Below, in pieces: positions 1-62,389 of a stretch of 64,000 nt of DNA. Source of the stretch: Schmidtea polychroa (taxonomy: Eukaryota); contig CM097888.1 in NCBI GenBank assembly GCA_044892525.1, positions 47,802,001-47,866,000 of the forward strand, written 5' to 3'. How positions within the stretch are numbered: the stretch's first letter is position 1; the number at the start of each line of letters is the position of its first letter. Under the pieces are notes generated by a model that saw only the letters and a program-made list of their open reading frames with translations, had not been told where the DNA came from and did no database searches. The position numbers and the translations under genes were made by a program.

Positions 1-1
1 G

Positions 2-217
2 AACATCACCGTAATGAGCCTGATTGCACTCAAACCCAATTCCAGTAAAGAAAGAAACAAAACCCTCAAACTAAAAGAACAATCAAGAATTATTCGTATC
101 CCAATGGAAGAACAGCTAGTCCAAACAACGAACCAACCAAGATACTTCAAATCTTCCCCAAACATTGAAACCAGTGCCGTCATCGAGACGAGATCCCGAA
201 CAACAGAATTCTATTAA
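2..217 (+). CDS. 3' end of an ORF that is open from the window edge; unknown product
   Basis: Frame is open from position 2 to TAA at 215-217; AATAAA at 261-266. Confidence 0.35.
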   Translation, partial: NITVMSLIALKPNSSKERNKTLKLKEQSRIIRIPMEEQLVQTTNQPRYFKSSPNIETSAVIETRSRTTEFY

Positions 218-3200
218 TGTGACATCACGTCTGTATAAATATTTCGTGACATTATAAAACAATAAATCATTCTGATCAAACAATTGTGATTTCAAGGACT
301 GAGACTGATTATGATTAATAACATTGATCCTTGAAACTGAGCATGATAATTTACTTTTATGTAGACCGACCTCGGTCGTTCTTTTTCTTCATCTTTCAAC
401 CCATCTGTAATGTGTAGTGTAATAGTAGCATTTTTATGTATGTGGGTATTGAGGTCACGACCCTGTAGCTCGTGGACCCAATTTGCATGTAGGCACTTGT
501 AATATAGTGCAAGTATTCTGAAAAATAATCTTATTCATCTTATGATTTAAATTGCGGGTCGCAATTTTATGGGCCCCGTGTGTTTTATGTTGGGCTAGAA
601 CTGACCTCTAGACCCAAAACCCTAAGTTGTGACTGGAATGCGTAGGTTCATAACATGCAAAAAGTATAGTTAAATATCAAAAATACACCAAATAAACAAT
701 ATTAATTAAATCAGAAAACAACAAAAATATAAACACAGAAATTAGATAAAATTATACAAATCAAGAAGTTATGCAAAATCTAACTCAAAAATAACCAAAT
801 AAACATAGAGTTACAAAAAACAAACTCGAATAACTTAAAAGACGGTAAAAACAGTAAAAATATTCCAGAAAAACCCAGAACATTCCATAAAATGGCGATG
901 ACCATCATAAAAGCCATCTAGAACAATAAAAGTTAGATAAATAAATTAGTAAGAAAAATAAAAAATTCTTAAAAAGAAATTCAGAAAACATGAATTAAAA
1001 GTAATATGGAATGTTCTGGAACCGTTCCAAATCCATCATGGAGGTAAAATTAGCAAAAAATATTTAGAAAATAAAAATTTAAAAATAAAAATTATGACGT
1101 AAAAATCGCCATTAAAAATATCAAAATAAAAAATTCTGGAATAAAAAGAATTCGAGTTTGTTTTAATGCATCAATACATACACGTGTACAAAATAGGTAT
1201 ATATACCGACGCATTTTAGTCACAATTTAATCTTTTTGTATGCTAAAAATTTTCACAGAAAATCCAAACGATACTGAAAGTAAGGACTATTGATTGTATT
1301 CATTTTATAACTGTTATTTTGTTATTATGTTTCATTATATTGATTATTTTTTGTCTTTTTATCAGATTAATTCTACTATTACGTAACAAGAGTGACCAGC
1401 GTCGCCGTGGACGGGTTTTATTCACGACGCTGATCAGCCTTGTTTCTAACTAATAGTCTACATGCACAAATTCGGGTCTACGACCCTACATGCATTAAAA
1501 TTTCAATTTTTAACCGGAGGTCGCCACGAACAAATGGTGTCTAACCATAAGTGGGGTCGGTAAATCCAATCCCGGTAGTTGGCATAGTCACAGGGACTAT
1601 GCGGACGAAATAAATTTTGGGATAGTAATCGCGGAAACATTACAATAAGGCCTATCGTACCGTATTCAATTGAGTCGGGAAAATAGGAAAATTTTAATTA
1701 ATTCGACTTTTCAGTAAATGACATACCTAAAATAAACACTCAACTATCTTATAAGAGGCATACCAGTAGGGAAATCTAAACGGGAAATGTCCCAGACTCA
1801 AATCATTACAAATATTCTCAAGTAGTCGGCTATTTAGACAAATTACTACAATTAATACTCAATCTTAATTCATAAACTCTAGCAATCTAATCATGATTAT
1901 TATAAATGTAATCTAATTCCCGTTCGATGGTGACCGAAAATCTTTTGGTAAAATTATTTATCTTTATATATATATCTTGCAATTCGATAGTAAACTAAAA
2001 GCTTTTCGTAAAATCATTTATTTTTAGGTCGTTAAAATTTTCTAATCCCCTTTTGATGATGAACAGAAATTATTTTATTATATTATATAAATTACATTAT
2101 AAATTCTATTATTATATTATATAAATTATATTATTATAAATTATATTTGAAATTATTTACCTACATGCCAAACAATTGTATTAAAAAGTTTTTTTTTTTT
2201 GATTTATACGATGAAATTTATAGCTGGATTTTTGTCTATTTAAGGGAAATCCGAAGAGGATATTTGCCAAGCGTTGATAAGGTAAATTACAAATATATAT
2301 ATATACCTTGACTTCAAAATAATAGTATGATATGAATTCCAATTAATAAGAGAAGCCCTGTTGTATTTACAGAAAAATGCCAACTTCGAACGACATGAAA
2401 TTTTATGATTGCATAGCTTCTGTTATTGCCAATTCGATAATTTGCATCACTTAAGAGAAATCAAACATCCACAAAGTGAATGGCAAAGAGTAAATAGTCA
2501 AATACACTTGAACATCCATCGCAAATGGTAGAAAATCTCTTAAGGGATTATATTTCCCTGGAACCGTGAAAGATATAATTTCCCTCTCTGTTCATGAATT
2601 TCTGCCGCAACATTGAAGGTTAGCCAGTAGCTCTAAATGTACATTTAGGAGATCTGATTGTCGAATGAATCCCTGATAAACTTCGTTGAATTAGATCCAA
2701 TAGTGAACTTGACAGAAATGTAAAACCAAAATTAGAATTACACTAAACAATAATCAATAAAATCCATACGTGAGGAAAAAATCTTCAAAATTTAGTATGC
2801 TTCTCGCAGAAGGATTGGCTAATTTCCTTCACCTACTTAAACAAGAATTTAATATGTTATTAGAATCAAGAAAAATTTTCTTACCAATTCATCGATCCAA
2901 AATTGAACAACAATTTAATGTAGTATAAAACACCAAGAAAATTTCCTTACTAATTAATCGATCCAAAATTGAACAATAATTTAATGTATCATTAAAGTTA
3001 AGATATTTTATTTTTTTACAATTAATCGATTCCAGATCCAAAACTGTTCTTCGTAACGATAAAGATATTTTCTTTCAATAGTACTATCATTATCATCGTT
3101 ATGTTTATATTATCATCAACTTGTCATGCTACCCATTCTACTTGGGTTATATTCAGAAATATAAATTATGAATTTCGATGAATGATCCCTCCTCCCCCCT

Positions 3201-3819
3201 CAAATCACATAACCGTCAACCATTTCTTGAGTATACCGAATTAGATTATATTAAATTTCATTTTACGGATAAAACTTCATAATTTTTCATATATGAATTC
3301 CCAAACCGTGTATGCGGTCATCTGATAAAAATATAAATCTACGAATACGACCATGTCTTTAGTCATTAGTATTATAATTATTATTAATAGTATCATTACC
3401 ATCATCCTATATCTATTGTTAAGGTTATTCCCCTTATTATCATTATCATTATTATTATTGATGTTATTGACATCGTGTATTATTATTATCTATTATCATT
3501 ATTGATACTACCCACGTTGGCATTATTTTTAACGAAGATTCGACTCACCCTGACTAACACATCGCAATGCATAATAAAGGAAAATCTGAACATCCAACCG
3601 AATTAATGGTAAAAATCACGACTAATACATTGTTCCAGACGCACTTGGAAATATTTTGATATTTTTTCCTCCTCATTACAGACATGTCCAACACGGAACT
3701 AAGGAATTTACAGAGAGGTCACTCGTCAACAAACTCGAGCCTCGAAATGACCCACGAGGAGGCAGACGAAGCCGTCCGATTGAGGGAGGACGCAGAAATC
3801 GCCCGGCTAAGGTCTAGAT

Positions 3820-6123
3820 CAGTGTTTCCCAGCCTGAGCGATATCGCCCACTAGTGGGCGATATGAGATTGACGATGGGCGATAGGAAAAGTCGACGAAA
3901 AGAAATTTAACAGGAAATATATTCAATTATAATAAAACCTCATTCTTCACATGATGACGCATAGCACCTATTAACCAGTGCAGATTAAATCTGTCGTGAA
4001 ATGCAATAGGCGTTAGATAAAAGTAGCAATTATCTGCATGCATAAGACTAACATCATGATGTAGCAACGGTGAATTATAACACACATACATGGCGGGGCA
4101 CATGTAGATTTCAGGTATGTTTCATTTTATTAAATTTGGCAGCATTTAGTTATTAATCACGGAATTAGTGGTTTTCACATTGTACCATCATTATTATTAT
4201 TTTGATTCACTCTTACGTAATGCCTCCTAAAATTATAATTGTGACCCGCAGCTATAATATTGACTACCTCAAATTTGGCTTCATTACTGCTTGCCATGAT
4301 GAGCGCATTCCGCTGTGTTTGCTCTGTAAAAAGACTTTTTCAAATGAAGCAATGAAGCCCTCACGCCTGAAAGACCATCTCAGTCGAGTTCATTCTGATA
4401 AGGCTACTGAAAGTCTCGTCTATTTCCAGAAATTGGGAAAAGAATACCGGGAACGTGCAACAATTACTTCACTGTTCAAAGCACAAAATTCAAAGAACGA
4501 GGACGGATTGGAAGCTAGTTATGAAATAGCAGCGCTAATTGCCAAATCTGGGAAGCCACACACGATCGGAGAGAACCTCCTAATTCCTGCACTTAGAGTG
4601 GTGATGAAAACTATGATGAAAATAGATCCGCATGACGTCCTCTCCCAATTGCCGTTGTCCAACAACTCCGTATCCCGTCGAATAGACGTAATGGCAGCGA
4701 ACATTGAGGAGCAGCTTGTGTATAAGTTGCAAGGCACACATTTCACCATGCAATTAGATGAGTCTACCGTTCGTGACAGTGAGGCCGTACTATTGGCCTA
4801 TGTCCGTTTCATTGATGATGGGGCCATGAAAGAGGAATTCTTGTTCGCGCGAACGCTAGTGTCTGATACAACAGGGGAGTCTATATTTCGAGTTACAGAA
4901 AATTATTTCGCAGAAAAACAAATTCCTCCTCTTAATATTCTTGCTTGTGCCACTGATGGCGCCCCATCAATGGTCCGATGCCATCAAGGATTTATCACAC
5001 GACTTAAGAATCTCGTGCCTCACATTTTCGGCATTCACTGCATGCTACACCGAGAGCATTTAGCTGCAAAAAAACTCAGCGGTGACCTTCACCATGCTCT
5101 GCAAATCGTTATCAGGGCAGTCAACATCATAAAGTCCAACGCTAAATTCGATCTCTCTTTAAGCAACTGTGTTACAATGAGGACGAGAACTATATAAGAT
5201 TACTCATGCATACTGAGGTAAGGTGGTTATCTAAAGGCAAGTGTCTCCGTCGATTTGTGGAACTGTTTGACACAGTATGCACATTTCTTTGCGACAACGT
5301 GCAGTTCATGGAGCTACAAGATTTGTACTTGAAACGTCGGATTTATTACCTAGCTGACATTTTTGATAAGCTGAATTAACTTAATAGAGACTTACAAGAC
5401 ACTGGGGTTACCCTTATTCACTGTTAGACCAAAGTCTTAACTTTCATGGATAAATTGGATTTGTGGCGGATGCAACTAGATCGGAGATATTTTGTCAACT
5501 TCGCCTCCCTCAACACTGTTTCAAATGATATCACGGATGCAGAAATAGTCTGCCTCACTCAATATCTTACCAATCTGAAAGACGATATGCGCAAACGCTA
5601 TGCAGAAATGCAGAATCTCGATATACCAAATTGGTTCACCCTGCCATTTGATGCACAGCCTTTTCTCGAAGATTCTAGTCTACAAGAGGAACTTCTTGAA
5701 TTGAAGAATGATTCAGAGGCCAAGGCATCGTTCACCCTCCGTGGTTATCAATCAATGTGGCTACAGTTTCATACCAGGTATCCGCATCTATGGAGCAAAG
5801 TTGAATTGCTTATTCTGGCATTCCCAACAACATGGCTGGTCAAGGCCGGATTCAGTGCGGTGACAAATTTGCTCACTAAAGCTCGAAATCGTCTGGACAT
5901 TTGCAAAGCTGGGGACCTACGTATGTTTCTTACTAACATGTCACCTGATATACATACACTAGTAGCTGGACACCAAGCGCAAGGGTCACATTAATTTCGG
6001 TAATTTTAGTGTCGACAATACTTAGATTCCTTGGAATTTTTGCAGTTTTAAAATATAGGTGGGCGATTTAGAAATTATTTTAACGAAATTGGGCGACAAA
6101 CCAAAAAAGGTTGGGAAACACTG
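3820..6123 (+). mobile_element. hAT transposon, Buster type, decayed (2304 bp)
   Basis: 16-bp TIRs CAGTGTTTCCCAGCCT / AGGTTGGGAAACACTG (1 mismatch). Perfect 8-bp TSD GTCTAGAT (3812-3819 and 6124-6131) with the central TA typical of Buster elements. Confidence 0.97.
4202..5994 (+). pseudogene. Buster/hAT transposase pseudogene (BED-type finger, DDE core, dimerisation region)
   Basis: Motifs CLLC...MKPSRLKDHL, QLDEST, ATDGAPSM, HCMLH, HTEVRWLSKG. Frameshift near 5152, stops at 5377 and 5425, and the catalytic E position reads K (AAG 5842-5844). Confidence 0.93.
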
Positions 6124-7009
6124 GTCTAGATGGATCTGGTACAAGATCCATGATTGGACCTACCAGAACGTAATTCCAGTGATCCCGAAGGTGGAACCCT
6201 ACATTAACTACACCTCGTTGGCTTTGATCGACGCATTCGACGATGCGAAGGAGGCGGTGGACCGGTTGCACCGGCTCGAAGTAGCAACCTTGGCCGGCGA
6301 GCTTGAGGACATCGACGGTTACGCTCGAGCCCAATGCCATCCTAAGCGGACCGCAGCCCTTCGCCGTGGGCTGGAATGCCAGAGGAGTCCTCCGCGAGGG
6401 CCGGACCAGCCGCGAAAGCGCGGTCGTCCACGGAAGATCCGTCCAGCTCAGTCCAAGCGATAGCTGGACCAAAGGTCAGCACTGTGCGTCGTGCCTTGAG
6501 CAAATTCACATTTAAATTATAATAAATGACCAGGACTTGATTTAATAAAAATTCTGATTTGCATGTATCAATGTGTACAGTATTATTATTGTCTAACGTA
6601 ATAGACGTCCTTTTTAATGTAGAGTATTTCTTATTTATATCTTGTATATCAATCTAATTGTTGGCATTTTCTTTATTTTTTTGTAATTAAAGTTAACTAG
6701 CATACCCATCAATTTTGTATATATGGTGTTATTAGGCAGCTATTATTCATACTCCAATTATAGTTTTCCTCATATAGTTTGGCCCACTATACATCTAAGT
6801 GTTTGTATTCTTACATTTCCTGATATCTCGAGACTATTCCTACCAACACCATAGGCTTTGGAGAGACTCCTAGGGTTAGATCGAGGTTTAGATGCACATA
6901 AATGCGGGGTGCGACGTGAGGATGGTGGCTCCTTTAGCGATAGGGGTCGTTATAGGGCACGAATACATCGACGATAGCGCGGACAGATATTGATGGTATC
7001 TTTGTTTTA

Positions 7010-7471
7010 GTGTTAAAGCTCCTAGAAGAGATGTGGGCAGATAGAGAGCGGGCGCAACAGCAGTCAGAGGAATACCGGGCCAAGCTAGTACGAATCAAGA
7101 CCCATTGCCGGAATTTCGAATGTACCTGGTTCCCGCCAGCAGAAATGAAAAAACGGATGAAGCTGATCGCTCAACTGCAACTCCAGAGTGCACAGGATCA
7201 GGTTGAGCTGCGGGCCCTCCGCCTGAGGGCGAAGGAGCTGGAGATCAAGGTACACCAACAGGATCTTGATCGAGAAGTCATTTCCAAGGTCCGGCCCATG
7301 AGTGAGTTGCTCCACAAACCGAAGGAGTACGCACCACCGATAATCCCGAGGAAGAAAATCCGGCCGGGCAAGGCGGCGCGGGCGAGAATAAGACAAGCCT
7401 GCCAGGCCCAATTAACACTTCATTCTACTGGGTCAGAGTCTATTCCGAAAGAATCGACCAAGACACTATAA
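7010..7471 (+). CDS. GC-rich hypothetical ORF/exon; predicted coiled coil with a basic tail
   Basis: 153-codon open frame in otherwise AT-rich DNA; begins at a ttgttttag| acceptor-like site; AATAAA at 7492. Confidence 0.5.
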   Translation: MLKLLEEMWADRERAQQQSEEYRAKLVRIKTHCRNFECTWFPPAEMKKRMKLIAQLQLQSAQDQVELRALRLRAKELEIKVHQQDLDREVISKVRPMSELLHKPKEYAPPIIPRKKIRPGKAARARIRQACQAQLTLHSTGSESIPKESTKTL

Positions 7472-10400
7472 GTTCTGATTATGTTTTTCCGAATAAATCT
7501 TTACTGGTACATCCATATCTGGGTATTTTGATTTTTTCATAACGTTAATTGTCGTAACGGGGACGAAAAGAAACCGGACATAGGCCTTCTATCGGCAGTC
7601 CGTGAACCCCAGTGGGTGCTAGACAATTATAGTATGTTAAGCATGCTCACTTTTTGCTAGTACCCAAACCCTTGATACAGTACCAACGTTGATTGCTCAA
7701 CGGGTATCAAGTGGTCAGCTATAAATTGTATTCTGGGTTACGCTGGAAACAGCATGAGGAGGTAGAGATTTTGCAGTACCTGTAACCCACCAGTAATTAG
7801 AACCTCAAATATCGGGTTTTAGCCTTCCGAATAGTATAAAAGTAGAGGCAACAATAAAACGGTGGGAAAATAGCGAGGAACACAAAGAAATTTCATAGTC
7901 GCCAGAAAAATTATAGAAGTCTAATTGTTTTGCCATAAAGATCAACTTTTCGAAGCGTCATTTTATCAGTTTTACTATTGATAAGCTTACTCAATTCGTT
8001 TAAGTGTTGATGGTGATTAATCCAGTGAATTTGTTATATAAAAGAAAACAAACTTTACTGTTTATTTCAAAGGAAAGCGCGGAGTCATTGAAGAAAATCT
8101 TATCAAAACATTTATTAATAAATCTTAACATATTAAATTACTCTAATTTACCATATCGTTATCTCAAATTTGACAGTCTCGAATAAATAAGAATTAACAG
8201 TGAAAATAATACCTCCAAAATATCATATTACATGAACTTAGTTAAATTACATTTCCAATATAAACATCAAAGTTTAAAAGTCACAATTCGATAAAACAAA
8301 AAATAAAAATACCTAATGCTAGATAATGGAAATAAAATAATGCAAATATCGTAACATAAAAGAAATAGTAATGACAATTAAGATATTTAAGCTAACATGT
8401 TTCAATATAATAAATTTTTAAATAAATTCATAAAATAATACAAACATGAAAAGATTTTAAATAATTAAAAAAAAAACCCGGGAAGAAATGCATCAATAAA
8501 ATAATTAAATTAATTGCAGAAGAAGTATTATATTTACAAGTAAGGAATAATATAATCAAGTAATTAAATTAATTTAAATTCAAAATCTATTAATTCAATA
8601 CAAATATTTAAACAACGAATGATAATCAATTTTAAATTATCATTCATATATCACATTAAAATCAAAAATAAAACTCAAAACCGAGCTTTGATAGCAACAA
8701 ATAGTGAAAGAAATAAAGAACTCATCATAGTATACAACACACAATATATTTATATACTCTTTTGTTACTGTAAACATTTATTTATCTATTTTGCTTACAA
8801 ATAAATTTTCTCATTATTTATATAGAATTTTGCGAAACATGACACGAATATTTCTACAAAATTATATTAATATTATTATTTTAACCACAGATATAATCAA
8901 AAGATGCTATAAAAAGTAAAAAAAATATTTTCATTAAGCAACATTTTGTTTTAACAATATTTTAGAAATAAAAATTTAAATGTTCCTAATTAAAACAATA
9001 CCTATTAGTTTAAACAAAAATGAAATATTGAATTAACCCACAGATAGATCGATTTGCAGAATTTCATTTGGCAACTTCTTTTGACCAGATATTTAATGGA
9101 CTTTTTGTTTAAAATGTATTCAATTTAATTTCCCAAGTTAAATTTAAAGCATCAATGCATTGAAAATGAATTGTTTGTTTATATTATCCCTCCATGGAAA
9201 TAATAAATTATAGATTTTTTTTACAAATCTAATAAAACTTTTAGTTGGTCTTCCGGGTTGATAATCTATTTTGTTTGAATAGACTTATTTAACCTTGACT
9301 CCGAAACTCTAAATGATATTACTTTCTTCTCATAACTATACTCATGGTTACTGTCATTTGCAACCATGTTGAAAATGTATAACGTGGTTAACAAAACTAC
9401 TTCTAATTACATTCTCACTTACGGGTTCCTTACTACCGATAGAATGTTTTACCTCTATACCATCACTCTTTGTTCCCAATTCCTAAACGTGTCAGTCAAA
9501 CCCTTTACAGTCTTTATTTGTTCAATCCAATAGAAAAATACAATGCTTTTTTTCTTTTCATGTACTCTTTCATTCATTTGATCTCTTTGTATTTCAAAAC
9601 TTACAAAACTACTTACCAGCGTTAAGAAAAATCTATGAGTTAAAATTTTGAAACTTGACTTACATTTCAAAATAAAAATTCTGTGTACAACTGTAAATTT
9701 CATATACGCAAGCGCGCACATTGGAGAGAACGTTGCTACTAACATTACCCAAATATTAACTGGTAGAATGGTATTGAAAAGTTAACCTTAATCTACATTA
9801 TATTTGGGTTGTAGAATCACGATATAATAATTTTTAAAATGTAATATTCAACAGAAATTTAATTATAAATAATTTATAATAAAAATGGCAATAATTTTGA
9901 CTCCTCGTGGTTTTATCTCAATTAATCAAATAAAAACCAACATGTAGCAATTTATTGAAACTCAATCAACAATTTTACAATATTGTTAATCACTTTTTTA
10001 ATCAGCACCATTTGACGATAATCTAAGGCTGGGAATCCCAATGGGAAACTGCATTTATTTATCTATTAAATTTTCACTTGTTTATTCAAATGTGACTTTG
10101 AGTTAAAGTCTGCTTGGCTCTTCTTTTTTGCTTTTAATTTCTTTCTTCGGCCAAATGACAATTAGTTATTAGCACCCTTTTTATAGGTTTCTCTCATTCA
10201 AATAATTCCTAATTAACCAACATCAAAACAATTTCATAAAAGATATTTTTCTAAAAACAATATAATTAGGTAGGCAACATTTCACATCTATGCGAACAGA
10301 CTCTATATTGACACTATATTTATTAAAAAGCTTGACTATGAATCAGTAAAGATATCGATGTCATGACAATAAATAAAATTTAAAAAAATTTCCGGTATCA

Positions 10401-14407: not shown

Positions 14408-17400
14408 GGTGGGTCGAATGTTAATAAATTTTGAGTTCAAGAAAGGAAACATGGTTAAAAAGTTGTATTTTGGTATAGAAAAATCGAATCAAACCATTTT
14501 ACTTAGATTTATGGACATTTACTGCTCCCAACTTTTCTCCGAAAATGCAGTTCAACATAAGTGTGAAAACAATGTAATTTGGCTAGTGTCGGAATGTGTT
14601 TTGCGCCTTTGTCCATATTTAGATGTAGCTTTCTTAAGAGCTTATAAGTATATTATTTACTCTCTTGGGCTGAGATAGTATATTCTGTGTCCTCATCCCG
14701 CATTGAAATATATCCTGACAACGTCAGTGATTAGGAAGGGCCAAATTTGAATTATCCTTTTCAAAGACAAAAATCAACTTTCGAAATTATTTTTTATTAA
14801 AAACATCCAGCCAAAAGTTTAGAAATGTATTAGCGAGGGCATAAAAAGAAGTCACATGAAATCAGCTTTGCTTTGCACTTTGGGCATTCCTTCCTTGATT
14901 TTTTACACAGTAGTACCATACCATGTCTGGACTTGTGACCAAACACTTTGCAACTGGCAGAAGAAACATCTTTGATGGCTCTTTCAACGGCTTGAGAATG
15001 ACAGGGAAATTGTTCTAATGTAATTTTCTTATTCATCTTCAATTCATGATCCAATATATGAGATAAAAGAGGGGGAGGCGTCAAATTACATTTTGTCCAG
15101 TCAATCATGTCAACATATGATGTAGCAGACGACTGAAGAAAGACAGTATTCTTGTCCATAGTGCGAATCACTTCGGAAGGGAGAAAATTTTGTCTTGCAG
15201 TTATGATTTTTTCAGTTGCAAACTTTCTGATTTCTTCATCATCATCACCAACAGCAGCTAGGAGTATATTTTCTGGATGTGAGAAGTAATTGTTGTTCTG
15301 AATGACAGGAAAGATGATTTCTTGGTCTGATGGATCCAAATCCTGCAGAAGTTGGAGCATATAAAAAATATTTCTTGCACCATCTTGGCATGACGAGTGA
15401 GTCTTTATATAAAACCATGACGGTCCATAGAAATTGACAATAAATTTCACTATTCGCATGAGAGGTTCAGATGGAGCAGTTTCGGACATATATAGTCGAG
15501 AATTCTATTAGCTTTCGTTAGCCAGCGACTGTGATTCAAATTTCCTGGTTGTGCCATTTGTAGAAAAGGGACATCCTTGTTGTTGTGGTACCCTTTCTGG
15601 ACTGCCAAGCATACTCTGAGGAAATACAATTGATCAGTGTTCAATTCTTTCTTGACATTTTCACTAATATCTACGACCTTTCCAGGAAGGGACATAAAGG
15701 CTACTACGGGCTTGTCTTTTGGATCAAAATCAAGAACGCTTCCTATTTCACCACATGACGTTTTTGGACCTTTTGTTTCTCCACCATCGACGACTGAAAA
15801 ATACTTCCTGAATGGCAATTCATTTGCATGCAACAAGCATATCAGCCATTGTAGAGGTCGCCCTAGGCTTTTTTCGAGTCTTCTGATTATTCCATTATTT
15901 TTTCCGGTGTTTGTATTGGTTCCATCGCACACAATTGCTTGAAGGGTCAGTGAGGACTGCGTGCTAACGATGATTGACATGATTTCTTTGCCAATATCCA
16001 CAGCTTTACTACTTTGAGGTACAACATGATCGATATATGTATCCCCTGGAAAGGCGACAATCACATAATGCTCCTCTTTTAGGATCCTTCTATGAAGTAA
16101 GGTGGAATCTTATTTCCCATCGAAACCGAGGCAAATCAAGTTTTTCGCTTCTGCTGAATGCTGTTCAATTTCTCTCTCCCTCCAGTACTTTCTCTGACGC
16201 CGTAATTTTGTGGGATCGATGATTGTTTGAGAGGATAACAGTTCCATATCTTTCAGAAAAGCGTTTACTAGCAAACACGTGTCTCTGTTGCTCACACCAC
16301 ATCTGTCAACAGCTTTACTTAATTCAGGATAATGTCTTCTATTTTGAAATTCATCACATTCTTCTACGCTTGACTCTGAGCTTTCTGTTGAATTGTCTAA
16401 CTTATCTTTACTTTCATCACTAGCGGCTTCACTCTCCGTGTCACTTCTTGAGGTCGGATGTAGATCGTTAACTTCAGTGTCCATTATTTCATTTTTCATT
16501 TGTTTTCCTTTTCCTGTAGGGCTGCTTTTCGTTTGTTTTCTCTTCAATTTTGAGGTTTCCTGTCTGTCCGTATTTCCGATTTTCACGTTTCTGGTAGTTT
16601 GTTGGTCAATCCAGAACTCCCACTCTAAGGTAGGAATTTTCAAGGCCAATCGGCATGTACACTGACTTCTTCCACGAGCACCATCATTAAAACATTTGCA
16701 GCAACATATGTCAAACAATTTGGAAAACGAGCTTAACTTATCTTGAAATTTGGCAGATGACCTCTTGCATTCTGGATACTTCTCTAATTCACGCACTTTT
16801 GATATTAGTCGCTTGACACGAACCACAATACTACTGAACTCAACAGTTGGGATACTTGCCTTCATATAAATTTCCTTCACCTTATTTGCGAGAAGAGTTG
16901 CTTGTTCGTTAAAGCCAGTATGAAATTGCGTACATTTCTCATTGTAACAGTAATCACGAAACACATCTTCACAAGTAGGTAATTGGTTTCTGGGTAGTTC
17001 ACAAGTTTGACCAAACAGACAATGACGTGATTTACTTCTTGTTTTGCGAAATTGCTTATTTCTCTGTCCCTTCATAACTGCTCTTCTGTACTCAGCTCTG
17101 GCAAAATAAAAGTGAATCATCAAGTTAACTTTTTTAATTAGGTCCAGCAAACACTTGACATCCAATCGAAACAAATTAAATTATCTGAGTTTAGACTGAC
17201 TAGTAGTATCCATGTGGATTATGTGTTGACTGTAGTGTGTGTGTTAGTATTGTTCAGAAGAAATTGTCTTTGTGAGTGCTTGTGTGAAGGTGCTTCCGTG
17301 AATTAACCTCTCTATACATGCACGCGTTAGCTTGGACTTGTGAATAGAGCATGTCAAAAATGGTCTTTCTGCAAGCGTGTGACTGCTTGCAGGATGAATT

Positions 17401-20400
17401 TACAATGGCACGTGTGCGAGCATTTTTACTGGGATAGTACTAATACATACAAACAAAAGTTGGGACCTGTAAACCCTTTTAAACAGCAGTCTTTTGCAGG
17501 GATATTTCATTTTCTAGCATAAGCACAACTTTTTAGGCATGTTTGGAGAAAAAAAAATTTTTCGACCCACCCTAATATATATATGTTACAGTTAAAGTAT
17601 AAACTTAAACAATGTAAACGATAACTAGTTCGATTCAGTTTAAAATTGAGTTAAAGTAAATTTTCATAGTTAATTTTTTTAGTAGAAAAATTTTAGACGA
17701 TAATAAAATAATAATAAAATAAATATTATATCTAGGTGGTATGCTGTATTGCAACATGGTATACTAGAATAACATTTTTGTATTTTATTAGAGAATGTAT
17801 ATATTGTTTAAGTTTATACTTTAACTGTAACATATAAAATTAAAAGTTTATTTGTTAGTACAAAGATAACATTTAAATATCTAAAAATGTTATTTAAATT
17901 TTACTAATGTGTTTGGTAATAATGCCATTAGTTCTGCAAAATTTCAAGGCTTTAGCTCGATGGATTCAGGTACCTGGCGAACAAATCCTTTCATCATTTA
18001 TCCATATCTCAGAACGCTTCTAGGACATTTACCCCCCGAACGATTACTCCCGGACAAAAAACCCCCCAGGACAATAACCCCCCAGGACAATAACCCCCGG
18101 ATAATAACCGCTTCTAGGACATTTACCCCCGGACATTTAAATAAATAAAATACTCATAACATACTATTTCGAGTGGATAAGTGGTGACTTAGAGTGATTT
18201 TTAAAAAAAAAATAAATATTCAATATTATAGACCATCGATTAAAATTAAATATGGAATTTCTGAAATCAAATAGAGGAGCGGAAAAAGTAGTTTTCGAAG
18301 GTTATATATATGTGAAGCAGAAAAATTTGGCTAATGGGGTTGTCTCATTTGAATGTGAAAAAAGGCGTAACAAGGCTGAGTGCAAAGCAAAAATTAAAGT
18401 TCGTGGTGAAGATATTGTGGGGCGCTTTAATGACCATTCTCATGGTCCAGATCCAGCACAAAAGGAAGTGCTGAAATCAGTTCAAAAAATGAAAAGATTA
18501 GCAGAAGAAACTGAAGAAACGCCTCAGCAGATAATTACGCAATCTGTTTCTACAATAAGTGAAAGTGCAAAAGCAAAGCTGACAACATTACATCATTTAC
18601 GTCGTAATATTAGACGTCAGCGTCAAGTTGTCAACAACCCTTTACCAGTGCCACTGAATGTTGACGCAATCGTAATTCCTGAACGTTATAAAGTAACAAC
18701 TGATGGCCAGAATTTTCTTCTGTTTGATTCTGGTACAGATAGTAATAATAGAATGTTGATATTTGGAACAGATAACAATTTAAAACATTTGGAATCAACA
18801 TTTCACTGGTTTATGGATGGAACTTTTAAAACAGCTCCTAAGCTTTTTACGCAGCTATATACTGTTCACGCATTAGCTAATGGGCGATGTATTCCTTGTG
18901 TTTACGCATTACTGCAGAACAAAAGACAAGATACGTATAAAGAACTTTTTCAACAATTAAGTATTCTTAATGTCAACTTGAAGCCCAGAAGCATTATGGT
19001 TGATTTTGAATTGGCAGTTATAAATAGTTTGAAGACAGTATTTCCTGACAGCCAAATAAAAGGATGTTTCTTTCATCTAAGCCAGAACATCTACCGCAAG
19101 ATTCAAGAAAACGGTCTTCAACAGCGTTACCAGGAAGATTCTGAATTCGCATTAAAAATACGGATGATTCCAGCACTAGCATTTGTCCCTCCAGAAGATG
19201 TAGTCGGCGCTTTTGAAGCATTGGTCGAATTGCTTCCTGCGAACGTTTTACCAATTGCAGATTATTTTGAAGATTTTTATATAGGCAGACAACAACGGCG
19301 TGGACGACGTCAATCCACTTATAACATAGACATGTGGAATATGCACCAAAGAGCCGAATATGAATTACCAAAAACTAATAATGCAGTGGAAGGATGGCAT
19401 AGAAGTTTTCAGTCCAACGTAGGAAGTTACCATCCTACCATTTGGAAATTTATTTCATTTATCCAAAGAGAACAAGCTCTGCAACAATTGCATTGTGCTC
19501 AAATGCTGGCCGGTCATTCATCCCAGACGTCGAGAAAGAAGTATGCAGATGCAAATATAAGAATACTTTCAATAGTCCGTAGCTACCGTGATCGCAGCAT
19601 TATAGACTATTTACGTGGAATAGCGTATAATTTATCCTTTTAATTAAATTTATATTCAAATTTAATATTTTTTGGTTTTTTATATTGTTTTTTTATAAAA
19701 ATATGTTTTTTTTAATATAATAAATATTTTAATCTATATTTTTTTAGTACGGGGGGTTATTGTCCTGGGGGGTTTTTTGTCCGGGGGGAATTGTCCGGGG
19801 GGTAATTGTCCTGTTACCCTCAGAGCATATTAAAGTCAGAATATTCAAATGTAACTAATAAGTGTTTAGAAATAGGGCTTTTAGTTTGCAAAATTTCGAA
19901 GAATGGAATGTCATTATTCATATAGATCATAATTTTTGAATTTGTTTCTGAATTTTTAGTTATTATAATTTACTTGCAATGAATTGAATATATGCAAATG
20001 TAAATAGATATATTTATTATCCTCCACTCTTTCTACAAAAATAAAAATGCGATGTTGGAAACCCCACTTAATTACACCATCCATCACTATGATCTAATAT
20101 TAGTCACTATTTTTTTTAATTTTTATCCAGAATTAATATTTTATGGCTATATGTAAATGATTAATATGCTTTTATATTTCTATTAGTGTAAATTATCATA
20201 ATTAGAAGTAAAAATTAAAATTACTCTGTTCTTTTCGCAGATCCATATATTGAATCCTGGGCGTTGGGCGGTACTAGGATAATTTCAAAGGTTTTGGATT
20301 TCTCCAGTTCCTCGGAGATGGCATTAACTTCAGATATCATTGGCAAAATTTCTAGTATTTGCTGTTGAACTACCTGTTGATCTAAATTAAATACAAATGT

Positions 20401-36055: not shown

Positions 36056-39000
36056 TTAATAATTTTCTATATGCATCATAAGGTCACAATGAGGTCTCTA
36101 GAACAGTTGTTAGTATCGTATTAGCTTGTTCCTGGTGGTATATTGGGTATTCAGAATATCATAAACTAAAGAGATTAAGTTCTACAAAACCTGTATTTTG
36201 CTATGATGTATCGTATAAGTTAAAATATCACTAAAATACAACTAAATTCAATTCACACTTGTATTTACCTTGCTCCATTCGTGATTCAATCTCTTTATAC
36301 GATCCGACGGGAATTTTTTTGAGACCCTGAACGAAAAATCCTTGAAATGGAGTTTGTCTAACTGGTAATCCTCCTTTCGGTTGAGCTTCTTTCGAAAGTA
36401 AATCACGAACATTTTCATTGTAAATTTCTAACATTGAAAATGTTACCTCATATCTCTGAATATAATATAAATTAGAATTTTTAAATAAGTTTCATAATAT
36501 TATAAATTCAAACAAAAATATCCTGAAATTCAAACTTTTATTAAAAACACTTATTTAGATTATATTAAAATCATATTGTTTAAATGATCTCTTTTCCCTG
36601 AATTGTTTTTCAAATTTCAAATCAACCATGCCAAACAAAGTTATTACTGAAGTGGTAAAAGTTGAATAAATTGACATTGTTGAAGGATTTGAGTTTTCAA
36701 CCGACGTGACTGAAAAAGATGAATATTTCATAAATAAATGACCAAAAAATGCCATTAATTACAGTTTCCATCATAAAGATTACCAAATCTGGAAGATTTT
36801 TAAATCTTTTTTGCAACTATTTTTCTCATATTATTAAATCATGTTTTACTAAGAAATCATCAATAAAACGGTTCAAGAAAACAGTGTTTCCAACTTTTTT
36901 CGGCCTATGGTCCCATTTTATTTTAATTCACTTCTATGGCCCTCCCATTTTAGTAGAATTTTAAACTTTATTCAATTACATTATATTAGCGGAGGGCTAG
37001 ACAAAGAGTACTGACGGCCACAGTACTGATCTTTTTACATGTATTTATAATGCATTTCTGAGAAAATGTTACTAAATTCTGATATATATTATATAACTTA
37101 CATTTTTTCATTAACGTCTTTCTGATTTGTCGAAAATTGTAGACAATATTAGTATACAATCAAATCTATTAATTCAAGTCGTTTTTAGCTTCAATAGGGT
37201 ATTAAACTTTTATTAAGTAGGCAAACAAGTCAAACATGTCTTTCAAAATTGTTAGTCACCTTCACCCTCTTTAGTAGGTAGCTAGTAGCCCGCGGGAGCA
37301 ATAGGGGGGGGGGGAGGGGGGTGGGGGTAAAAAATGTTGCAAACTTTTGATTGCATAATTTTTGCCGTAGACATTTTTTTGATTACATAATTGTTGCCGC
37401 ATGCTCCAATGATTTTTTTTCTGGGATTTTAAATACAAAAATTTTTTTTTCTATAAACAAGCCAAGGATAAATATTATTTGGGTGGGTCTCCTTGGTCCT
37501 GAGAATTTCAATAGAAAAGGTAGTCTACATTAATAAAGCATGGATTATTCAGACTATAGTGAGGGGGTCTCCTTGATCCTGGGATTTTCAATACAAAAAG
37601 ACGGTTTACACTAAAAAAGTTTTGTAATTCAAGGTCTCAGGATATTTTCAATACAAAAAGCCAAGGATAAACTTACCTGTGTGTAAAAATTTAATGCTGC
37701 GAAAGTTAACATATTTATTATAGGAATCTAAAAAGTGAGAGAAAATAATTAAGCATACAAACACAGCACACATAATGAAAAATACATACAAAATTAATGA
37801 AGTGTTTTTTTTGCGAAATTAACATTGATTAACATATAATTAACATATTAATATTTTCAAATTAATTAAAAAGTTATGCACAAAAAACTTTTGAATCAGA
37901 ATCCGACTGTTCTACCTTGAGCTTCAGAGAAAAAGAAGAAAATACATCGTAAGATTTAATTATAAAATAATTTAGAATATAACATTTCTTTAGATTTACA
38001 GATATTGAAGAAGGTCCTTCGACATCTTTGAATTTGCTGAAAAAAATAGCAAATCGTAAATTTTAATAAATTATTTTAACAAATTAATATTTTCATAGAA
38101 TTACAGAAAATGACAAAATTCGAAAGAAGATTACAAAAACTTAAAAAACTATTTTATCCATTCTTTCCTAAATGTCTTAAAAAAATAAATGTTTGGTGAT
38201 TACTTTATTTATTTATAATTATAAAAATATCTAACTTACATTTTTACGAAATGAATCCAAATAAAATATCATAAAATTCCTAAAAACACCTGAAATTTAA
38301 TTATCAGTATCCTATATTATAAATGATGACTAATAGTAATACTTAAGAACTTGAATAATGATCTCATAATTATATAAATCAAAATTCAAGTCCTAAAAAT
38401 TACTTCAATTCAAAAACTTACCTTAAAACGATTTTTGAAAAATTGAAAAAATGAAATTAAGTTAACATTGTCATAGTTAAATGGTGATTTAAATGGTGAC
38501 TCACCTCAACTGGTGTGCACAACAACGTATATTATAGATAATGTTAACTTTCGCAAACAGGTGTATCTACAGTCAGTAAAATCTTTTTTACACGGTCTTT
38601 TTTTACACAATTTTGAAATAATACGGTTCGTCAAGAAGAAATTTTAAAATTCTTTATACGTTATTTTTGATTTAACACGAATTCCAAAAACAAATTTTAA
38701 TTATTTACATGATTTTCTGCAATATATAATTTCAAAAGACCGCTTAAAAAAGATTTTACTGTATAAACATAATTTATGGATTATATTTATATACTATAGA
38801 TTGTTTTATATCAAATTCAGCACGATGTATAGTAATTATATTTGCAATAATACAATATTAAATGTTAAAAATATGAAAACAATTAAAATCCAATATTTAA
38901 ATTATGACAAAAATATAAATTCATAAATATATTATGTATAAAGAACATAAATAAATAAAATAAAATGTTTACTTTAATTGAAAATACACGTAATATGTCT

Positions 39001-42000
39001 TTGTTGGAAAAGATGGAAGGTAGAAAGAGAGTAGGTAGTTAGTAGCCCGCGGGAGCAATAGGGGGGGGGGGGGTGAAAAATGTTGCAAACTTTTGATTGC
39101 ATAATTTTTGCCGTAGACATTTTTTTGATTACATAATTGTTGCCGCATGCTCCAATGATTTTTTTTCTGGGATTTTAAATACAAAAATTTTTTTTTTCAA
39201 TAAACAAGCCAAGGATAAATATTATTTGGGTGGGTCTCCTTGGTCCTGAGAATTTCAATAGAAAAGGTAGTCTACACTAAAAAAGCATGGATTATTCAGA
39301 CTATAGTGAGGGGTCTCCTTGGTCCTGGGATTTTCAATACAAAAAGACGGTTTACACTAAAAAAGTTTTGTAATTCAAGGTCTCAGGATATTTTCAATAC
39401 AAATAGGTGGTCTACACTAAAAAACAGTGGCAATTTAAAGTCTCAGGATATTTTCAATACAAAAAGCCAAGGATAAATATTATTTGGGTGGGTCTCCTTG
39501 GTCCTGGGATTTTCAATACAAAAATCCGATTATCACTAAAAAAAGCCATAGTTATTTAAGATCTCAGGATATTTTCAATAGAAAAAGGTAGTCCTCCAAT
39601 AAAAAAGCATGGATTATTCAGACTATAGTGAGGGGTCTCCTTGGTCCTGGGATTTTCAATACAAAAAGACGGTTTACACTAAAAAAGTTTTGTAATTCAA
39701 GGTCTCAGGATATTTTCAATACAAATAGGTGGTCTACACTAAAAAACAGTGGCAATTTAAAGTCTCAGGATATTTTCAATACAAAAAGCCAAGGATAAAT
39801 ATTATTTGGGTGGGTCTCCTTGGTCCTGGGATTTTCAATACAAAAATCCGATTATCACTAAAAAAAGCCATAGTTATTTAAGATCTCAGGATATTTTCAA
39901 TAGAAAAAGGTAGTCCTCCAATAAAAAAGCATGGATTATTCAGACTATAGTGAGGGGTCTCCTTGGTCCTGGGATTTTCAATACAAAAAGACGGTTTACA
40001 CTAAAAAAGTTTTGTAATTCAAGGTCTCAGGATATTTTCAATACAAATAGGTGGTCTACACTAAAAAACAGTGGCAATTTAAAGTCTCAGGATATTTTCA
40101 ATACAAAAAGCCAAGGATAAATATTATTTGGGTGGGTCTCCTTGGTCCTGGGATTTTCAATACAAAAATCCGATTATCACTAAAAAAAGCCATAGTTATT
40201 TAAGATCTCAGGATATTTTCAATAGAAAAAGGTAGTCCTCCAATAAAAAAGCATGGATTTTTCACACTATAGTGAGGGGGGGGGTCTCCATAGTCCTAGG
40301 ATTTTCAATACAAAAAGACGGTTTACACTAAAAAAGTATGGTAATTCAAGGTCTCAGGTTATTTTCAATACAAAAAGGTGGTCTACACTAAAAAACATGG
40401 TAAATTTTTTAAAATAAAGCAAATTATGGGTCTAAATATTGAATTACATTAAATAATGGGTCTAAAAATTGAATTACAGTAATCAATGGTCAATAATTTT
40501 AATTTAAAGTTAAATAAGTAAATTAAAGGCTAAATTATGAAATTAAAGTAAATCAAGGTCCAAAATTTTAAACTAAAGTAAATGATGGGTCTAATAATTG
40601 AATTAAAGTAATCAATGGGATGAAATAAGTAAATTAAGGTTCAAATTAGTAAATTAAGATCCAAAAAAAAAATTAAATTAAAGTAATCAATGGGTTCAAA
40701 TGAGTTAATTAAGGTTCTAAAAAAAAATTAAATTAAATTAATCAACGGGTTCAAATAAGTTAATTAAGGTTCTAAAAAAAATTAAATTAAAGTAATCAAT
40801 GGGTTCAAATGAGTTAATTAAGGTTCTAAAAAAAATTAATTTAAATTAATCAACGGGTTCAAATAAGTTAATTGAGGTCTAAAATTTAAAATTAAAGCAA
40901 TCAATGAGTTCAAATAAGTAAATTAAGGTCCAAATATTTAAATTAAAGTAATCAATGGGCTCAAATAACTAAATAAAGGTTCTAAAAAATAAAATTAGAG
41001 ATAATTAAGGTTCAAAATTTAAAATTAAGTAATCAATGGTAAAAAAAAACTTTAAATTAAAGTTAAATAAGTAAATTTAAGTAATGTAATAAGTAAAAAA
41101 AGTTAAAGTTAGATTTTAAAAGTTATTTACAAAAAGTTGGAATAATAGTTGGTGATTGAGAATTGAAAATTTTAAATGAAAATTTTTAACGTATATTTTT
41201 TAAGATAATTTTTAATAGACATTTTTATGAAATATTTTTCAATGTTAATTTTAGATGAAAATTTTAATGAAATAATTATTTTTTAAGTTAATTTTTTATG
41301 AATTATTTTTCAATGTTAATTTTAGATGGAAAGTTTTATGTATTATTTTTCAATAGTAATTAAAGATGCAAATCATTGTCAATTAATCATTCACTACATG
41401 AAATTATTGGTAAAATATGAAAATAATGGCTATATTTGGTTGTAAATTATGGTAAAAAAAATTTAAATAAAGTAATACAAGGATAAATAGGTAAAATAAT
41501 GTTTTATTTTTAAATTATAGGTTCAAAACTTTAAATTAAAATTTATAAACAAAAAGTTGGAATAACCAACCGCTTCTGAGAAATAAAAATTTAAAATAAA
41601 AATTTTAAATAAAATTTTTAAGAAATAATTTTTTAAAGTCAAATTTTAATAGAAACTTTTATGGAATAATTTTTTTAAGTTAATTTTTATTGAAAATATT
41701 TATGAAATATTTTTTTTAAGTTAAATTTGAATAGAAATATTTATGGTATAATTTTTGAAGCTAATTTTAAATAGAAATTTTAATGAATTAATAATTGTCA
41801 AAGGCAAATTTAGATGCAAATTTCAATGATAATAAAAATTAATAATAAAATTAATTATTAATATTATTAAAAATAATAATCATAATAAAAATAATATTAA
41901 TATTAATAAAAATAATAANNNNNNNNNNNNNNNNNNNNNNNNNNNNNNNNNNNNNNNNNNNNNNNNNNNNNNNNNNNNNNNNNNNNNNNNNNNNNNNNNN

Positions 42001-45000
42001 NNNNNNNNNNNNNNNNNNNNNNNNNNNNNNNNNNNNNNNNNNNNNNNNNNNNNNNNNNNNNNNNNNNNNNNNNNACAACTATCAGGTACAACTAGATACC
42101 AAGTACATACAACCAACTACTAAGTACCTACAACTATGTACTAACAACCAACTAAGTATTCTTTATTGTATTTTATCAAATGATTTTTAAATTAATTTTT
42201 ATCTGTCTTCAAAAATATATTTAATTACAATCAGTAGAAAAAATCTTTTCAAAATGTCTAAATTTAACAAAAATGTTGATTTTCATCAAAAATGAATAAT
42301 TGTCAACTCATCACTACTTGGAATTCAAAATAATTTAAATTACAATGAAAGACTAATGAATTCTAATTTACAAAACATTCTTCTTTTAATTGATTACTAC
42401 TGACTTATTATTGCAAAGTAAAAATCACATTCAATAACTACTTATTGTTGATCAGTTTTATTATATATACTCTTAGTCTATCTGACAGGATGTTTTGACC
42501 CGCTAAGGGTACTGGTCGTAAGGGTACTGATAGTAAGGGTATTAGTCGTAAAGGTACTAGTCGTAAGGGTATTGGTAACACTCAACCACCAACTACCCAT
42601 TAACTAGCTACTAAGTACTATCAACCAGTTACCTGCTACCATGTACTAACAACCACCATCAAAACCTATCGAGAAATTAACAAATATATACAACTATATG
42701 ACAACAATCAGTAAACAACATTGCACCAACAACCAAGTACAAGATACCAACAACTTAATATCATCTACCAGTAACTATAAACACGTATTTTCAACTAGAT
42801 ACCAAGTACTTACAACAATATACCAAATGCTATCAGTTAAGTACTTACAACAAGATACCAAGACTATCAGCAAAATACTATCAACTAACAACACATAAAA
42901 ATAATAGCAATTAAATACAAAATATTCTTCATCACATGCAATATATTCTTGTCATCATCTACAACTAAACTCTATCAATCAGATACCAAATATTAACAAC
43001 CAGATACTTACAACCAACAACTATGTAATAACAAATTGATCTTTAAAAGAAAATACTCTTCACTTGAAAAATTGGATGAAAAATTAATAAAAAAAATGCA
43101 ATTCATTAATTAACTGATTACCAGTACTTGTATGATTTTCCAATAACTAGATAAAAATTAAATAAATCATTGTAAAAATTTAAATTATTCAAAATATAAT
43201 AAATATGAAAATGTAATGGACGAAAGAACTTTAAATTCTAGTCATTAATCATCCAGTAAATAAAAAAAATACTGATCATTCAAGTTAATCAACTAAGATA
43301 ATAAAGATAATAAGATCTAGTAGATAATTTATTTTGATTGAATAAATTAACTGAAATAAATTAATTTTAATTATTTTTTAAAAGTAATACACGTATATTC
43401 AAATCTATTTACTAATTCCTCAAATTATACACAAAATTCAGTATGAATTCATTACCATTATCAAAGTCAACAATCTACAATAAAAATAATTATCATTAAA
43501 TTCCAAAAGAGACTAGATAACTAATGATAACATCTAATAAACCAGTAAATTCATTTAAATGTCAATAATTGGTATATCCAAGTAAATTTTCTACTAAAAT
43601 CATCTAGAAAGGATCAAATTTCCATGAAATATCAATGTCTTTAAAGATAAGTATTTTATCGATAAATACCCTTAAAAGGCTATATATTTCCCTCAGACTA
43701 ATAAGATTGCTTAAAATCCCGTTTAAATAACTATAATTATATCTTTAATTTCTATTATCACGAATATTTCCCTATAAAACATGTAAAATCATTAACTCTA
43801 AACAATTTATAAAGTCTAATGACAAAAAAACAGTTATAATTAAATTTTTGTTCTAAAAATAAATCACTGTAATCGAAATTTAAAATAAATATTGCTTGAA
43901 ATTTGACTATACAATATAACTGAGTAGTTGCATAGAAAGATTAAATTTATCCATATTTCTTCAAATGATCATTTTTACCGATATTCAACCGATTTAATTA
44001 CTAATTAAAATCACCCGATAGATTTCTCCCAATAAAGATCAATTTTCTTTAGTCAACGTTTTAAGTCCATATTTCCAACTTATGTCGTTGTCCGTCTAAA
44101 TAAAGATAAAAATAATTTAAAGTTGATATCAATCCCAATTATCTGTAAAGATTTCATTGTCAAAACCAAGTAAATCGATCATTATCTCTACTTAATAAAA
44201 CATTGTTCTAAATTAATTTACTGTGCATTAATCACAACCTAATAAAAAGATATAATTTCACATTATTATTGATAAAACATTGATATTTTACCAACATCTC
44301 CCTTACAATGATATATTCCCATCTTAACCCATCCTTCATTAAATTCAATCGACTATATCTCCCTTACAATGATATATTCCCATTTTAACTCATCCCTCAT
44401 TAAATTTAACCGACTATATCTCCCTTAAAAGATCATATTTTCCCATCTTAACCGATCTCTCATTAAATCCCACCGACAATATCCCAGCTAAACCGATCTC
44501 TAACCAAATATTTCTACCCCTTTAAACATTTATCCGACTATATCCATTAATTCTACCCACTTGAATCCTCCTTTAATTCAATCAATCCTCTTAAAATTCT
44601 TAGAGAATTCTTCAAAAATATGAATTTTTATTAACTGTTATCGACATCCAAAATACATCTATGAAATAATTTAGTATCTAAATTCACGTAGTAAAAGATC
44701 AAAATTCACTAAAGTTTTCTACAAATATTTAACCTATCAAATACCTAACTAGAGATGATATATATTGATTGTTCATAAAAGCAAACTAAATCACAAATTT
44801 CTGTATATCCTACAATAATTATCAAGTAAATTAAAAGTCCTTGATAAAGTTAACTGGTTTCTTAGCTTATGTTTTTTTTAAAAGTTCATCAATGTGTAAA
44901 TATTCTTAGAAAATTATTGAAAAATTATTTAGTCAAATGCATTACAAAGTCATCTAAAATTAAACCAATTACTTAATTATTAACCTAACAGTCATTAAAA

Positions 45001-61183: not shown

Positions 61184-61785
61184 AAATCAAGAGCAATGTA
61201 ACAGTTTATCTAATATTTGAACAATTTCTATTTCGACAATAGCTGTAAAACTGTAACCTCGCTCTGTCAGTATTTTCATCATATAATCTGCCAAATATAT
61301 ACATTTCAAATCCATTCTGCGAACTGCATGAAGCAATGCATATTCTTCATAAATTAGCATAATATGTGGTGCATCATCTTCAAAATTTAGAACGACACCT
61401 CCTGTACTAATTGAAGCGTACAAAGAAAGAATTGCTTGAATTGCAACACAAATGGTTTGAGCTTTGAATATTTCATATATAATTTGAGTCATATTTTTTC
61501 TGTTAACTTCTAAATTCTGTGGCGTTTCGGTAAGAAGAACTGAATACTCTCCTGGCGTATTTTTAAATTCAATGTAGAATATATGATGCCAGGTCTTTTT
61601 CAAATCATCCAAATTAATAACAATATCGTGTTCAGTCGCAGATTTAAGAGTTAAAATACTTCTCTTAGGCAGAGCCTCACAACCAACATAGCTATCTTTT
61701 TGATCCATACAAACCATAACTCCCTTATGTCTTGGTCTAAAAGTCCGAAAAACAAATCGTTCCAGAAGCATCGAAAATCCACAAG
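61184..61785 (-). pseudogene. ACT: Truncated, diverged, intronless actin pseudogene (about residues 20-222)
   Basis: RPRHKGVMV, QKDSYVG, WHHIFY, VLLTE, AIQAILSLYAS, YMMKILTERGYSF align to actin. Many radical substitutions, indels at both ends, no N- or C-terminus. Confidence 0.9.
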
Positions 61786-62389
61786 AATTGAATAACTCAG
61801 CAATCAAAAAAATTTCAGACAAAATGAATAAACATTTAAACTCGACAATTCGTGTCTGCAACCAAAAAATAACACGCGTGCGCACACAGACGCGAATAGT
61901 CTGAATTAACAATATACATGTGAAATAGAAACATTAAATAAAATAAAAAACTATTTTAATATTGTTGGGTCTTGAAAATTGATTATTCAACACGAGAAGT
62001 CAGGTTAACATTTTCATAAAAAACAAAACCATATAAAATTTGTATTATATATTGCAGTTGAAACCCGTTTATATGAACTTTTAGGACAATAACAAATGAA
62101 AATATTATCCGAATGATACAATTTTTAATAAAAGTTCAAAAATGTTAACATTATATAAAAAGCTCAAACAAAAAATGTAAAGCAAAATTGCATACTTTAC
62201 CGCATCCGTATTATCTTTTATCCAATCATAAATCGTGCTCCTTTTAAAGCGCAATTCATGACATCTAAATAATACTAATGCACTTTTATTTATTCTTTCC
62301 ACAATTGTCAATTTTTTTTATCAACTCATAACATACTTTTTCTTTTTTTTTATTTTCATTTAAAATTTAATAAGTTATAATGTATTTAA

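Follow-up and report, generated by a model that had tools for sequence, protein, structure and literature searches.

The function of most accessory proteins of mobile elements is unknown, and annotation misses them. In LTR elements, the additional ORFs lie outside gag-pol; those of maize Grande (GENE23) and PvRetro13 (ORF2) are described, in the sections of the source consulted, as orphan, family-wide, and often nuclear and helical (PMC7264820). Cer1 of C. elegans encodes CERV, a spliced protein with a leucine zipper and an NLS and, according to the excerpt consulted, no homologue outside nematodes (PMC10309623). The Burro elements of planarians are also reported to carry accessory ORFs (PMC6431247). 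In Polintons/Mavericks (adintoviruses), variable small ORFs flank the core modules, as the consulted part of the source has it (PMC8097293), and the accessory regions of Mavericks offer a comparison for the module studied here (PMC8502044, consulted in part). At the protein level, EBNA1 of EBV is described in the consulted passages as having an AT-hook-type module that tethers the viral genome and remodels chromatin (PMC3597695).

Here we followed up a locus for which a sequence-only reading had proposed a small hidden gene, referred to as gene A. The data support the proposal that gene A is a real small gene carried by an element and interrupted by a Buster-type hAT, and they indicate that the gene is under constraint. 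Once the hAT and one copy of the target-site duplication (TSD) are removed, the two parts of the gene share a single frame of 155 residues without a stop, with an X at the break, which agrees with the uninterrupted ORF first read there. The 5′ part (3684-3819, + strand) has 45 codons plus 1 base and no stop, with a GC3 of 0.62. The 3′ part (6132-6463, +) has 2 bases, 109 codons and the stop, with a GC3 of 0.68, and diverged, gap-poor copies. The ORF list does show only the 3′ half with a false start: the listed frame (6059-6463) takes its first 22 codons from the right end of the hAT.

The hAT element (3820-6123, +) measures 2,304 bp, with a TSD and terminal repeats. The TSD is the 8-mer GTCTAGAT, with its left copy at 3812-3819 and its right copy at 6124-6131, and these two hAT flanks are its only occurrences in the window, by which we mean the whole stretch of 64 kb that was analysed. 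The terminal inverted repeats are identical over 12/12 bp and match at 15/16 over the first 16 bp. The element shares with Buster hATs an 8-bp TSD matching the consensus nnnTAnnn given in the consulted part of the source (PMC3517528), short terminal repeats and a putative BED-finger-like transposase front, and differs from them in that the transposase of this copy is broken. That transposase (4202-5994, +) has a frame change near 5153 and a stop at 5377-5379; its zf-BED match reaches 16.7 bits, below the Pfam cut-off of 20.6, and its PDB search gave no match. On the basis of motifs, we provisionally place the element in the Buster clade; its TSD fits the Ac-type consensus too.

Other copies of the hAT are about 1% different, as in X3 record 11 with 25 differences over 4010-6103. 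One X8 contig (record 28) spans the right junction by 36 letters, and thus the insertion is not an assembly artefact. In one X1 contig, position 3819 is joined to 6253 with the hAT absent and the intervening letters unread, and no exact empty site appears among the 15 joints listed of 61. Uninterrupted copies of gene A likely exist in the genome. The insertion in this copy is young, and the hAT itself is an ordinary case of nesting into gene A. The copy at 3684-6463 is most likely dead, and the insertion provides a natural knockout of it and a means of dating.

Regarding gene signals, the acceptor placed before the ATG by the sequence-only reading was confirmed as a predicted site. The candidate (3662-3681, +; phase 1 to the ORF) ends 2 bases 5′ of the ATG, presents 16/19 pyrimidines and ranks joint first among the 161 YAG sites of region 1-9000 (+), hAT excluded. 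After the stop, two AATAAA hexamers (6521-6549, +; at 6521 and 6544) are present as claimed, and they are weak evidence, with 0.4 expected per 80 flank bases. Flatworm spliced leaders end in AUG. We discarded spliced-leader trans-splicing onto the acceptors of gene A and of the neighbouring gene B because the leader AUG would be out of frame at both. We also discarded run X7, presumed to be RNA, as evidence of expression, since its contigs cover the hAT and the spacers as DNA would.

To assess constraint, public contigs from four runs, chosen among 17, were aligned to 1200-8400, and the counts below come from the longest 31 of 10,601 contig pieces; the assembly may have been built from one of these runs, X1. 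Among these best 31 of 10,601, the four pieces of the gene A 3′ part presented 26/174, 36/204, 22/179 and 18/174 differences with 0, 0, 0 and 1 gaps, so that copies diverged by 10-18% total 102 substitutions and a single gap. From the same 31 of 10,601, ten pieces that are non-coding throughout and lie outside the hAT presented 165 differences and 30 gaps. Pieces of the hAT, the flank piece, the four pieces of gene B and three that straddle the edge of a coding region are not part of this count. Neither gene A nor gene B contains any of the 12 indels listed of 97. Among the 40 variant sites listed of a set with 643 more, the 3 in gene A are all silent (chance 0.04). The coding part of gene A resists frame-changing gaps, and many diverged copies make up its family. 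Gene A sites have a summed depth 7-8x the median of nine nearby non-coding sites (X1, X3, X7), and in X3 it is 5,823 in gene A vs. 969 in the hAT interior; summed depth is a hint and no copy number. The excess fits distant subfamilies aligning over the coding part only.

These data also bear on whether gene A could be a GC-rich non-coding repeat that happens to be open. No homologue was found and GC-rich DNA has few stops, as such a repeat would have it. In base shuffles of the same composition, a frame of the length of the 5′ part alone (45 codons) stays open in 14%. Against a chance frame, only 59/20,000 such shuffles (0.3%) were open for as long as gene A, the acceptor is the best-ranked one, and the GC1/GC2/GC3 of 0.64/0.47/0.68, the gap-poor diverged copies and the 3/3 silent sites listed all speak for a coding sequence. 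We regard a chance frame as barely credible.

Gene A exists in many copies, and a second gene with the same layout lies after it; neither of these observations was in the sequence-only reading. Gene B (7031-7471, +) is an orphan of 146 codons from its first ATG, with a GC3 of 0.61. It repeats the gene A layout of an acceptor-like site (6999-7010, +; phase 1, 12 pyrimidines, listed 10th of 161), a GC-rich ORF and an AATAAA hexamer (7492-7497, +). Two sequences from ENA assemblies, P0001 and P0002, are 76-77% identical to gene B over the full length, with one gap, the same end and conservative changes. Both of its variant sites listed change a residue (T/A, V/I), conservatively and toward the residues of P0001. 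The four gene B pieces presented 13/0, 39/2, 24/6 and 30/3 differences/gaps. The structural model has long helices followed by a basic tail (pLDDT 78).

No protein family was found for gene B. Its Atlas matches (a chordate cluster, zgc:113691, at 0.95 with 157 shared features; CENPF; CEP128) were set aside as generic coiled-coil likeness. No paralogy between gene A and gene B was detected either (hhalign probability 0.2%), and binding between the two proteins is hinted at by their neighbourhood alone.

Both acceptors are phase 1, and P0001 keeps 6/7 residues between the gene B acceptor and its first ATG; thus, a shared upstream exon is possible. Judging from the position of the gene A acceptor, 2 bases before the ATG, the 155 residues may be the last exon only. 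Taken further, the ATG at 3684 would be internal to a longer spliced protein whose main domain lies upstream, and the strength of that acceptor, the common phase and the P0001 residues would all suit such a structure. Region 1-3680, on the other hand, holds no GC-rich open frame or canonical donor, and no longer protein was found to match gene A or gene B, the latter a weak point. We consider this longer protein unlikely.

Protein A is of no recognised family, in agreement with the sequence-only reading: no relative was found in any protein or fold library searched. For the 3′ part (112 aa), there was no relative among 16 word candidates, none at E 0.001 among 1.84 billion representative sequences, no usable Atlas match (recognition of 1465, under the 2300 typical of known families) and no PHROGs or NCBIfam match, and the best hits in PDB and BFVD folds had E of 1.1 and 0.33. 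The 5′ part (45 aa) had no match in Pfam, PHROGs and NCBIfam, and the viral contigs searched had no match to protein A or B. Three putative relatives, L001 (from a metagenome), L002 and L003, were rejected as chance matches of 20-30 bases in unrelated DNA. Within the libraries and literature searched, the family appears undescribed.

Protein A is acidic at residues 21-40 (8 D/E) and basic in its last 15 residues (8 K/R, 0 D/E). The structure-prediction check, a single-sequence model of the 3′ part with a mean pLDDT of 57, gave a helix at 29-69 and a disordered tail. This predicted long helix (6209-6331, +; H29-69 of the 112-residue fragment) is of low confidence, and no clear heptad register was found in it.

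The AT-hook is defined, in the consulted part of the source, by a central GRP flanked by Arg/Lys (PMC6222470). The motif RKRGRPRK (6413-6436, +) agrees with that definition, with Arg/Lys directly on both sides, and is a single AT-hook-type core within the disordered basic tail. The AT-hook claim is therefore upheld for the canonical core and falls short at the profile level, where AT_hook PF02178 scores 11.4 bits on protein A (E 0.32), below the gathering cut-off of 17.4. The gathering cut-off applies to whole proteins, and a protein with one hook may fall below it. Should the hook prove functional, gene A would encode an element-borne minor-groove binder in a genome of ~75% AT.

The tail could instead be a plain basic NLS or RNA-binding stretch of a real element gene, with the GRP incidental. 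There is one hook only and it stays under the Pfam cut-off, shuffling the last 40 residues yields [KR]GRP[KR] in 1.9% of cases, and gene B has a similar tail with K-I-R-P and no GRP, conserved in P0001 and P0002. Some diverged contigs end their alignment before the motif (X3 record 12 at 6354, and X7 record 22 at 6392, where 141 of its letters remain unaligned). Moreover, GRP-type motifs whose basic residues lie farther away favour RNA, as far as the consulted part of the source describes them (PMC6222470). Against an incidental GRP, the core is canonical, it arises in only 0.2% of shuffles of the whole 3′ part, and an X7 contig whose 3′ flank differs stays aligned up to 6448, beyond the motif. 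No variant site falls inside RKRGRPRK among those listed. We hold the plain basic tail to be rather unlikely, though a serious contender. A general role of protein A as a nuclear regulator fits as well as the chromatin tethering first put forward.

Genes A and B lie between two highly covered, variable non-coding blocks. The left block (1366-1920) has hairpins, and a strong acceptor-like site ends at 1365; the contig alignment began at 1200, and the left end of the module lies beyond its reach. The right block (7560-7795) is the probable right end of the shared sequence: loose contig ends fall at 7571 and 7764, an unbranched X1 contig covers 7766-8400 with 0 differences, and the sequence is single-path beyond ~7.8 kb. 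One contig joins 1708 to 7575. The module is a repeated two-gene cassette, and no parent element can be seen for it in the window.

Both blocks present hairpins and internal rearrangements, and one contig returns from 7764 to 7643, like a tandem unit of ~150 bp. At 2-266 (+), the end of an open frame is followed by AATAAA; it has no family match and may belong to the module.

We searched for signatures that could assign the module to a class of elements. No direct or inverted repeat links the module flanks (the best left-right alignment is under 30 AT-rich bases), and an LTR might lie outside the 64-kb window. Within the window there was no gag-pol, RT or integrase. Polinton core genes (pPolB, integrase, ATPase, capsid) were absent from the 33 ORFs of at least 80 aa and the 19 stretches scanned with Pfam, in a copy that may be a fragment. 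The block ends lack (AGT)2 terminal ends, AGTAGT occurring only at 1821; no TATAAAC box lies near the gene A or B ORF; and nothing in the module is similar to the Polinton-type palindrome at 37-53 kb. No hammerhead core (CTGANGA) was found on either strand of 1-9000, no Rfam family of any kind matched to E 5, and there was no tRNA or Pol III B box around the module.

As for a polypurine tract, other copies have purine-rich letters before 7571. A TGG-start candidate for a primer-binding site near 1535 was, by eye, an unconvincing match to tRNA ends. A TATAAAA-AATAAA pair at 7835/7853 was rejected as an LTR because it sits in the single-path flank.

Since no LTR, TIR, gag-pol or Polinton core gene was found, we infer the mobility of the module from copy diversity alone. 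No published description of the A/B module was found; a planarian repeat library and Repbase, outside the sources covered, may catalogue the family. As the carrier, we tentatively put the accessory region of an LTR retroelement first. The accessory region of a Polinton/Maverick comes second, as a doubtful candidate, followed by another or undescribed element, which we consider somewhat unlikely; a host gene family is an improbable carrier.

The window is eukaryotic DNA of high AT content (GC 19-44% per 2 kb). A kinesin-3-type gene with many exons and with KIF1B, FHA and kinesin Pfam matches occupies 11214-35635 (-). Because that gene ends near 11.2 kb, the gene A locus is intergenic and downstream of it. 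The last kinesin frame ends in CDIM, which we take to be CaaX-like.

Other features are found along the window. An uninterrupted FLYWCH + MULE transposase lies within a kinesin intron (18252-19643, +), and a transposase-like reading spans three consecutive frames at 14830-17174 (-), with no Pfam family above the cut-off. The arms of a nested, nearly perfect non-coding palindrome (37270-53060) reach up to 2.3 kb (100%), and it has 322-bp repeats and ends of the AGTAGGTAG type. At 36882 there is a second hAT-type end, like that of the element in gene A at 11/12 bases, possibly a MITE cut by the palindrome. A tandem array of a 31-bp unit (56032-56618) and an actin-family ORF (61187-61912, -; 99 bits) complete the picture.

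Genes A and B could also form a lineage-specific host multigene family, outside any mobile element. The module lacks its own transposase, LTR or terminal repeat, and it sits at an intergenic site ~3 kb past the kinesin stop, both of which a host family would explain. Its codon usage, however, is unlike that of the host: GC3 in gene A is 0.62 (5′) and 0.68 (3′) vs. 0.32 in the kinesin exon and 0.28 in the MULE. Genes A and B are also bracketed by extremely abundant repeat blocks, the contig joining the two blocks looks as a deletion derivative would, and the flank turns single-path at ~7.8 kb. A host family is thus very unlikely in our judgement.

We put at about even the chance that this locus is a dead copy of an accessory nuclear-regulator gene, belonging to the A/B module of a mobile or virus-like element in a flatworm-like genome. 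In intact copies, transcripts of genes A and B would each be spliced at the acceptor immediately 5′ of the ORF, and a shared upstream leader is probable given the common phase 1 of both acceptors. Protein A would have an acidic front and a helical middle that may oligomerise, and the GRP core of its Arg/Lys tail could act as both nuclear signal and minor-groove grip. Most likely, the protein would have an accessory regulatory role in the nucleus, acting on its own element so that copies stay transcribed or remain bound to AT-rich chromatin. This putative role is modelled on the accessory ORFs of LTR elements and Mavericks, as those are thought to act.

A bolder version is that the module is an undescribed class of dispersed elements without transposase, LTR or TIR, which moves with borrowed enzymes. 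One leader would give two alternatively spliced nuclear proteins, and protein A would be an EBNA1-like AT-hook tether or an anti-silencing factor on AT-rich stem-cell chromatin. We consider this version speculative and decidedly unlikely.

For the accessory nuclear-regulator gene, a direct test is at hand: piRNAs control planarian transposons, which respond to RNAi, according to the consulted part of the source (PMC8532177), and the role of genes A and B is therefore directly testable. The relevance of the locus lies in an apparently undescribed pair of constrained orphan genes, present in many copies in a planarian-like genome.

When compared to the accessory ORFs of LTR elements, gene A is likewise an orphan and multi-copy ORF, and its protein is predicted to be helical. 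It differs in that the module has no LTR, gag or pol in the window, that two tandem genes each have their own acceptor, and that a GRP core is not described for those ORFs in the consulted parts of the source texts. With the accessory regions of Polintons, the module shares the small ORFs A and B, but no core gene, TIR, (AGT)2 block end or TATAAAC box is found at it. Penelope-like/Terminon elements with coiled-coil ORFs have a hammerhead ribozyme, which is absent beside genes A and B (1-9000).

At the motif level, protein A shares with HMGA and EBNA1 a GRP/RGR core, flanking Arg/Lys and a disordered stretch. It has one GRP core, whereas HMGA has three AT-hooks, and it lacks the repeated RGR array of EBNA1. 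Unlike both, it has no recognisable sequence-specific DNA-binding domain, and it has no sequence similarity to them; for a second, origin-binding domain like that of EBNA1, protein A gave no fold or sequence match. We do not file the module under LTR elements, Polintons or HMGA because LTRs, gag-pol and Polinton ends and core genes are absent (in the window), as are three hooks. On this comparison, the closest in kind would be the orphan accessory ORFs of LTR elements or the accessory regions of Mavericks and, for the motif, HMGA or EBNA1. Gene A belongs to a known type of gene, the small accessory genes that repeated elements carry, and a hAT has knocked out this copy.
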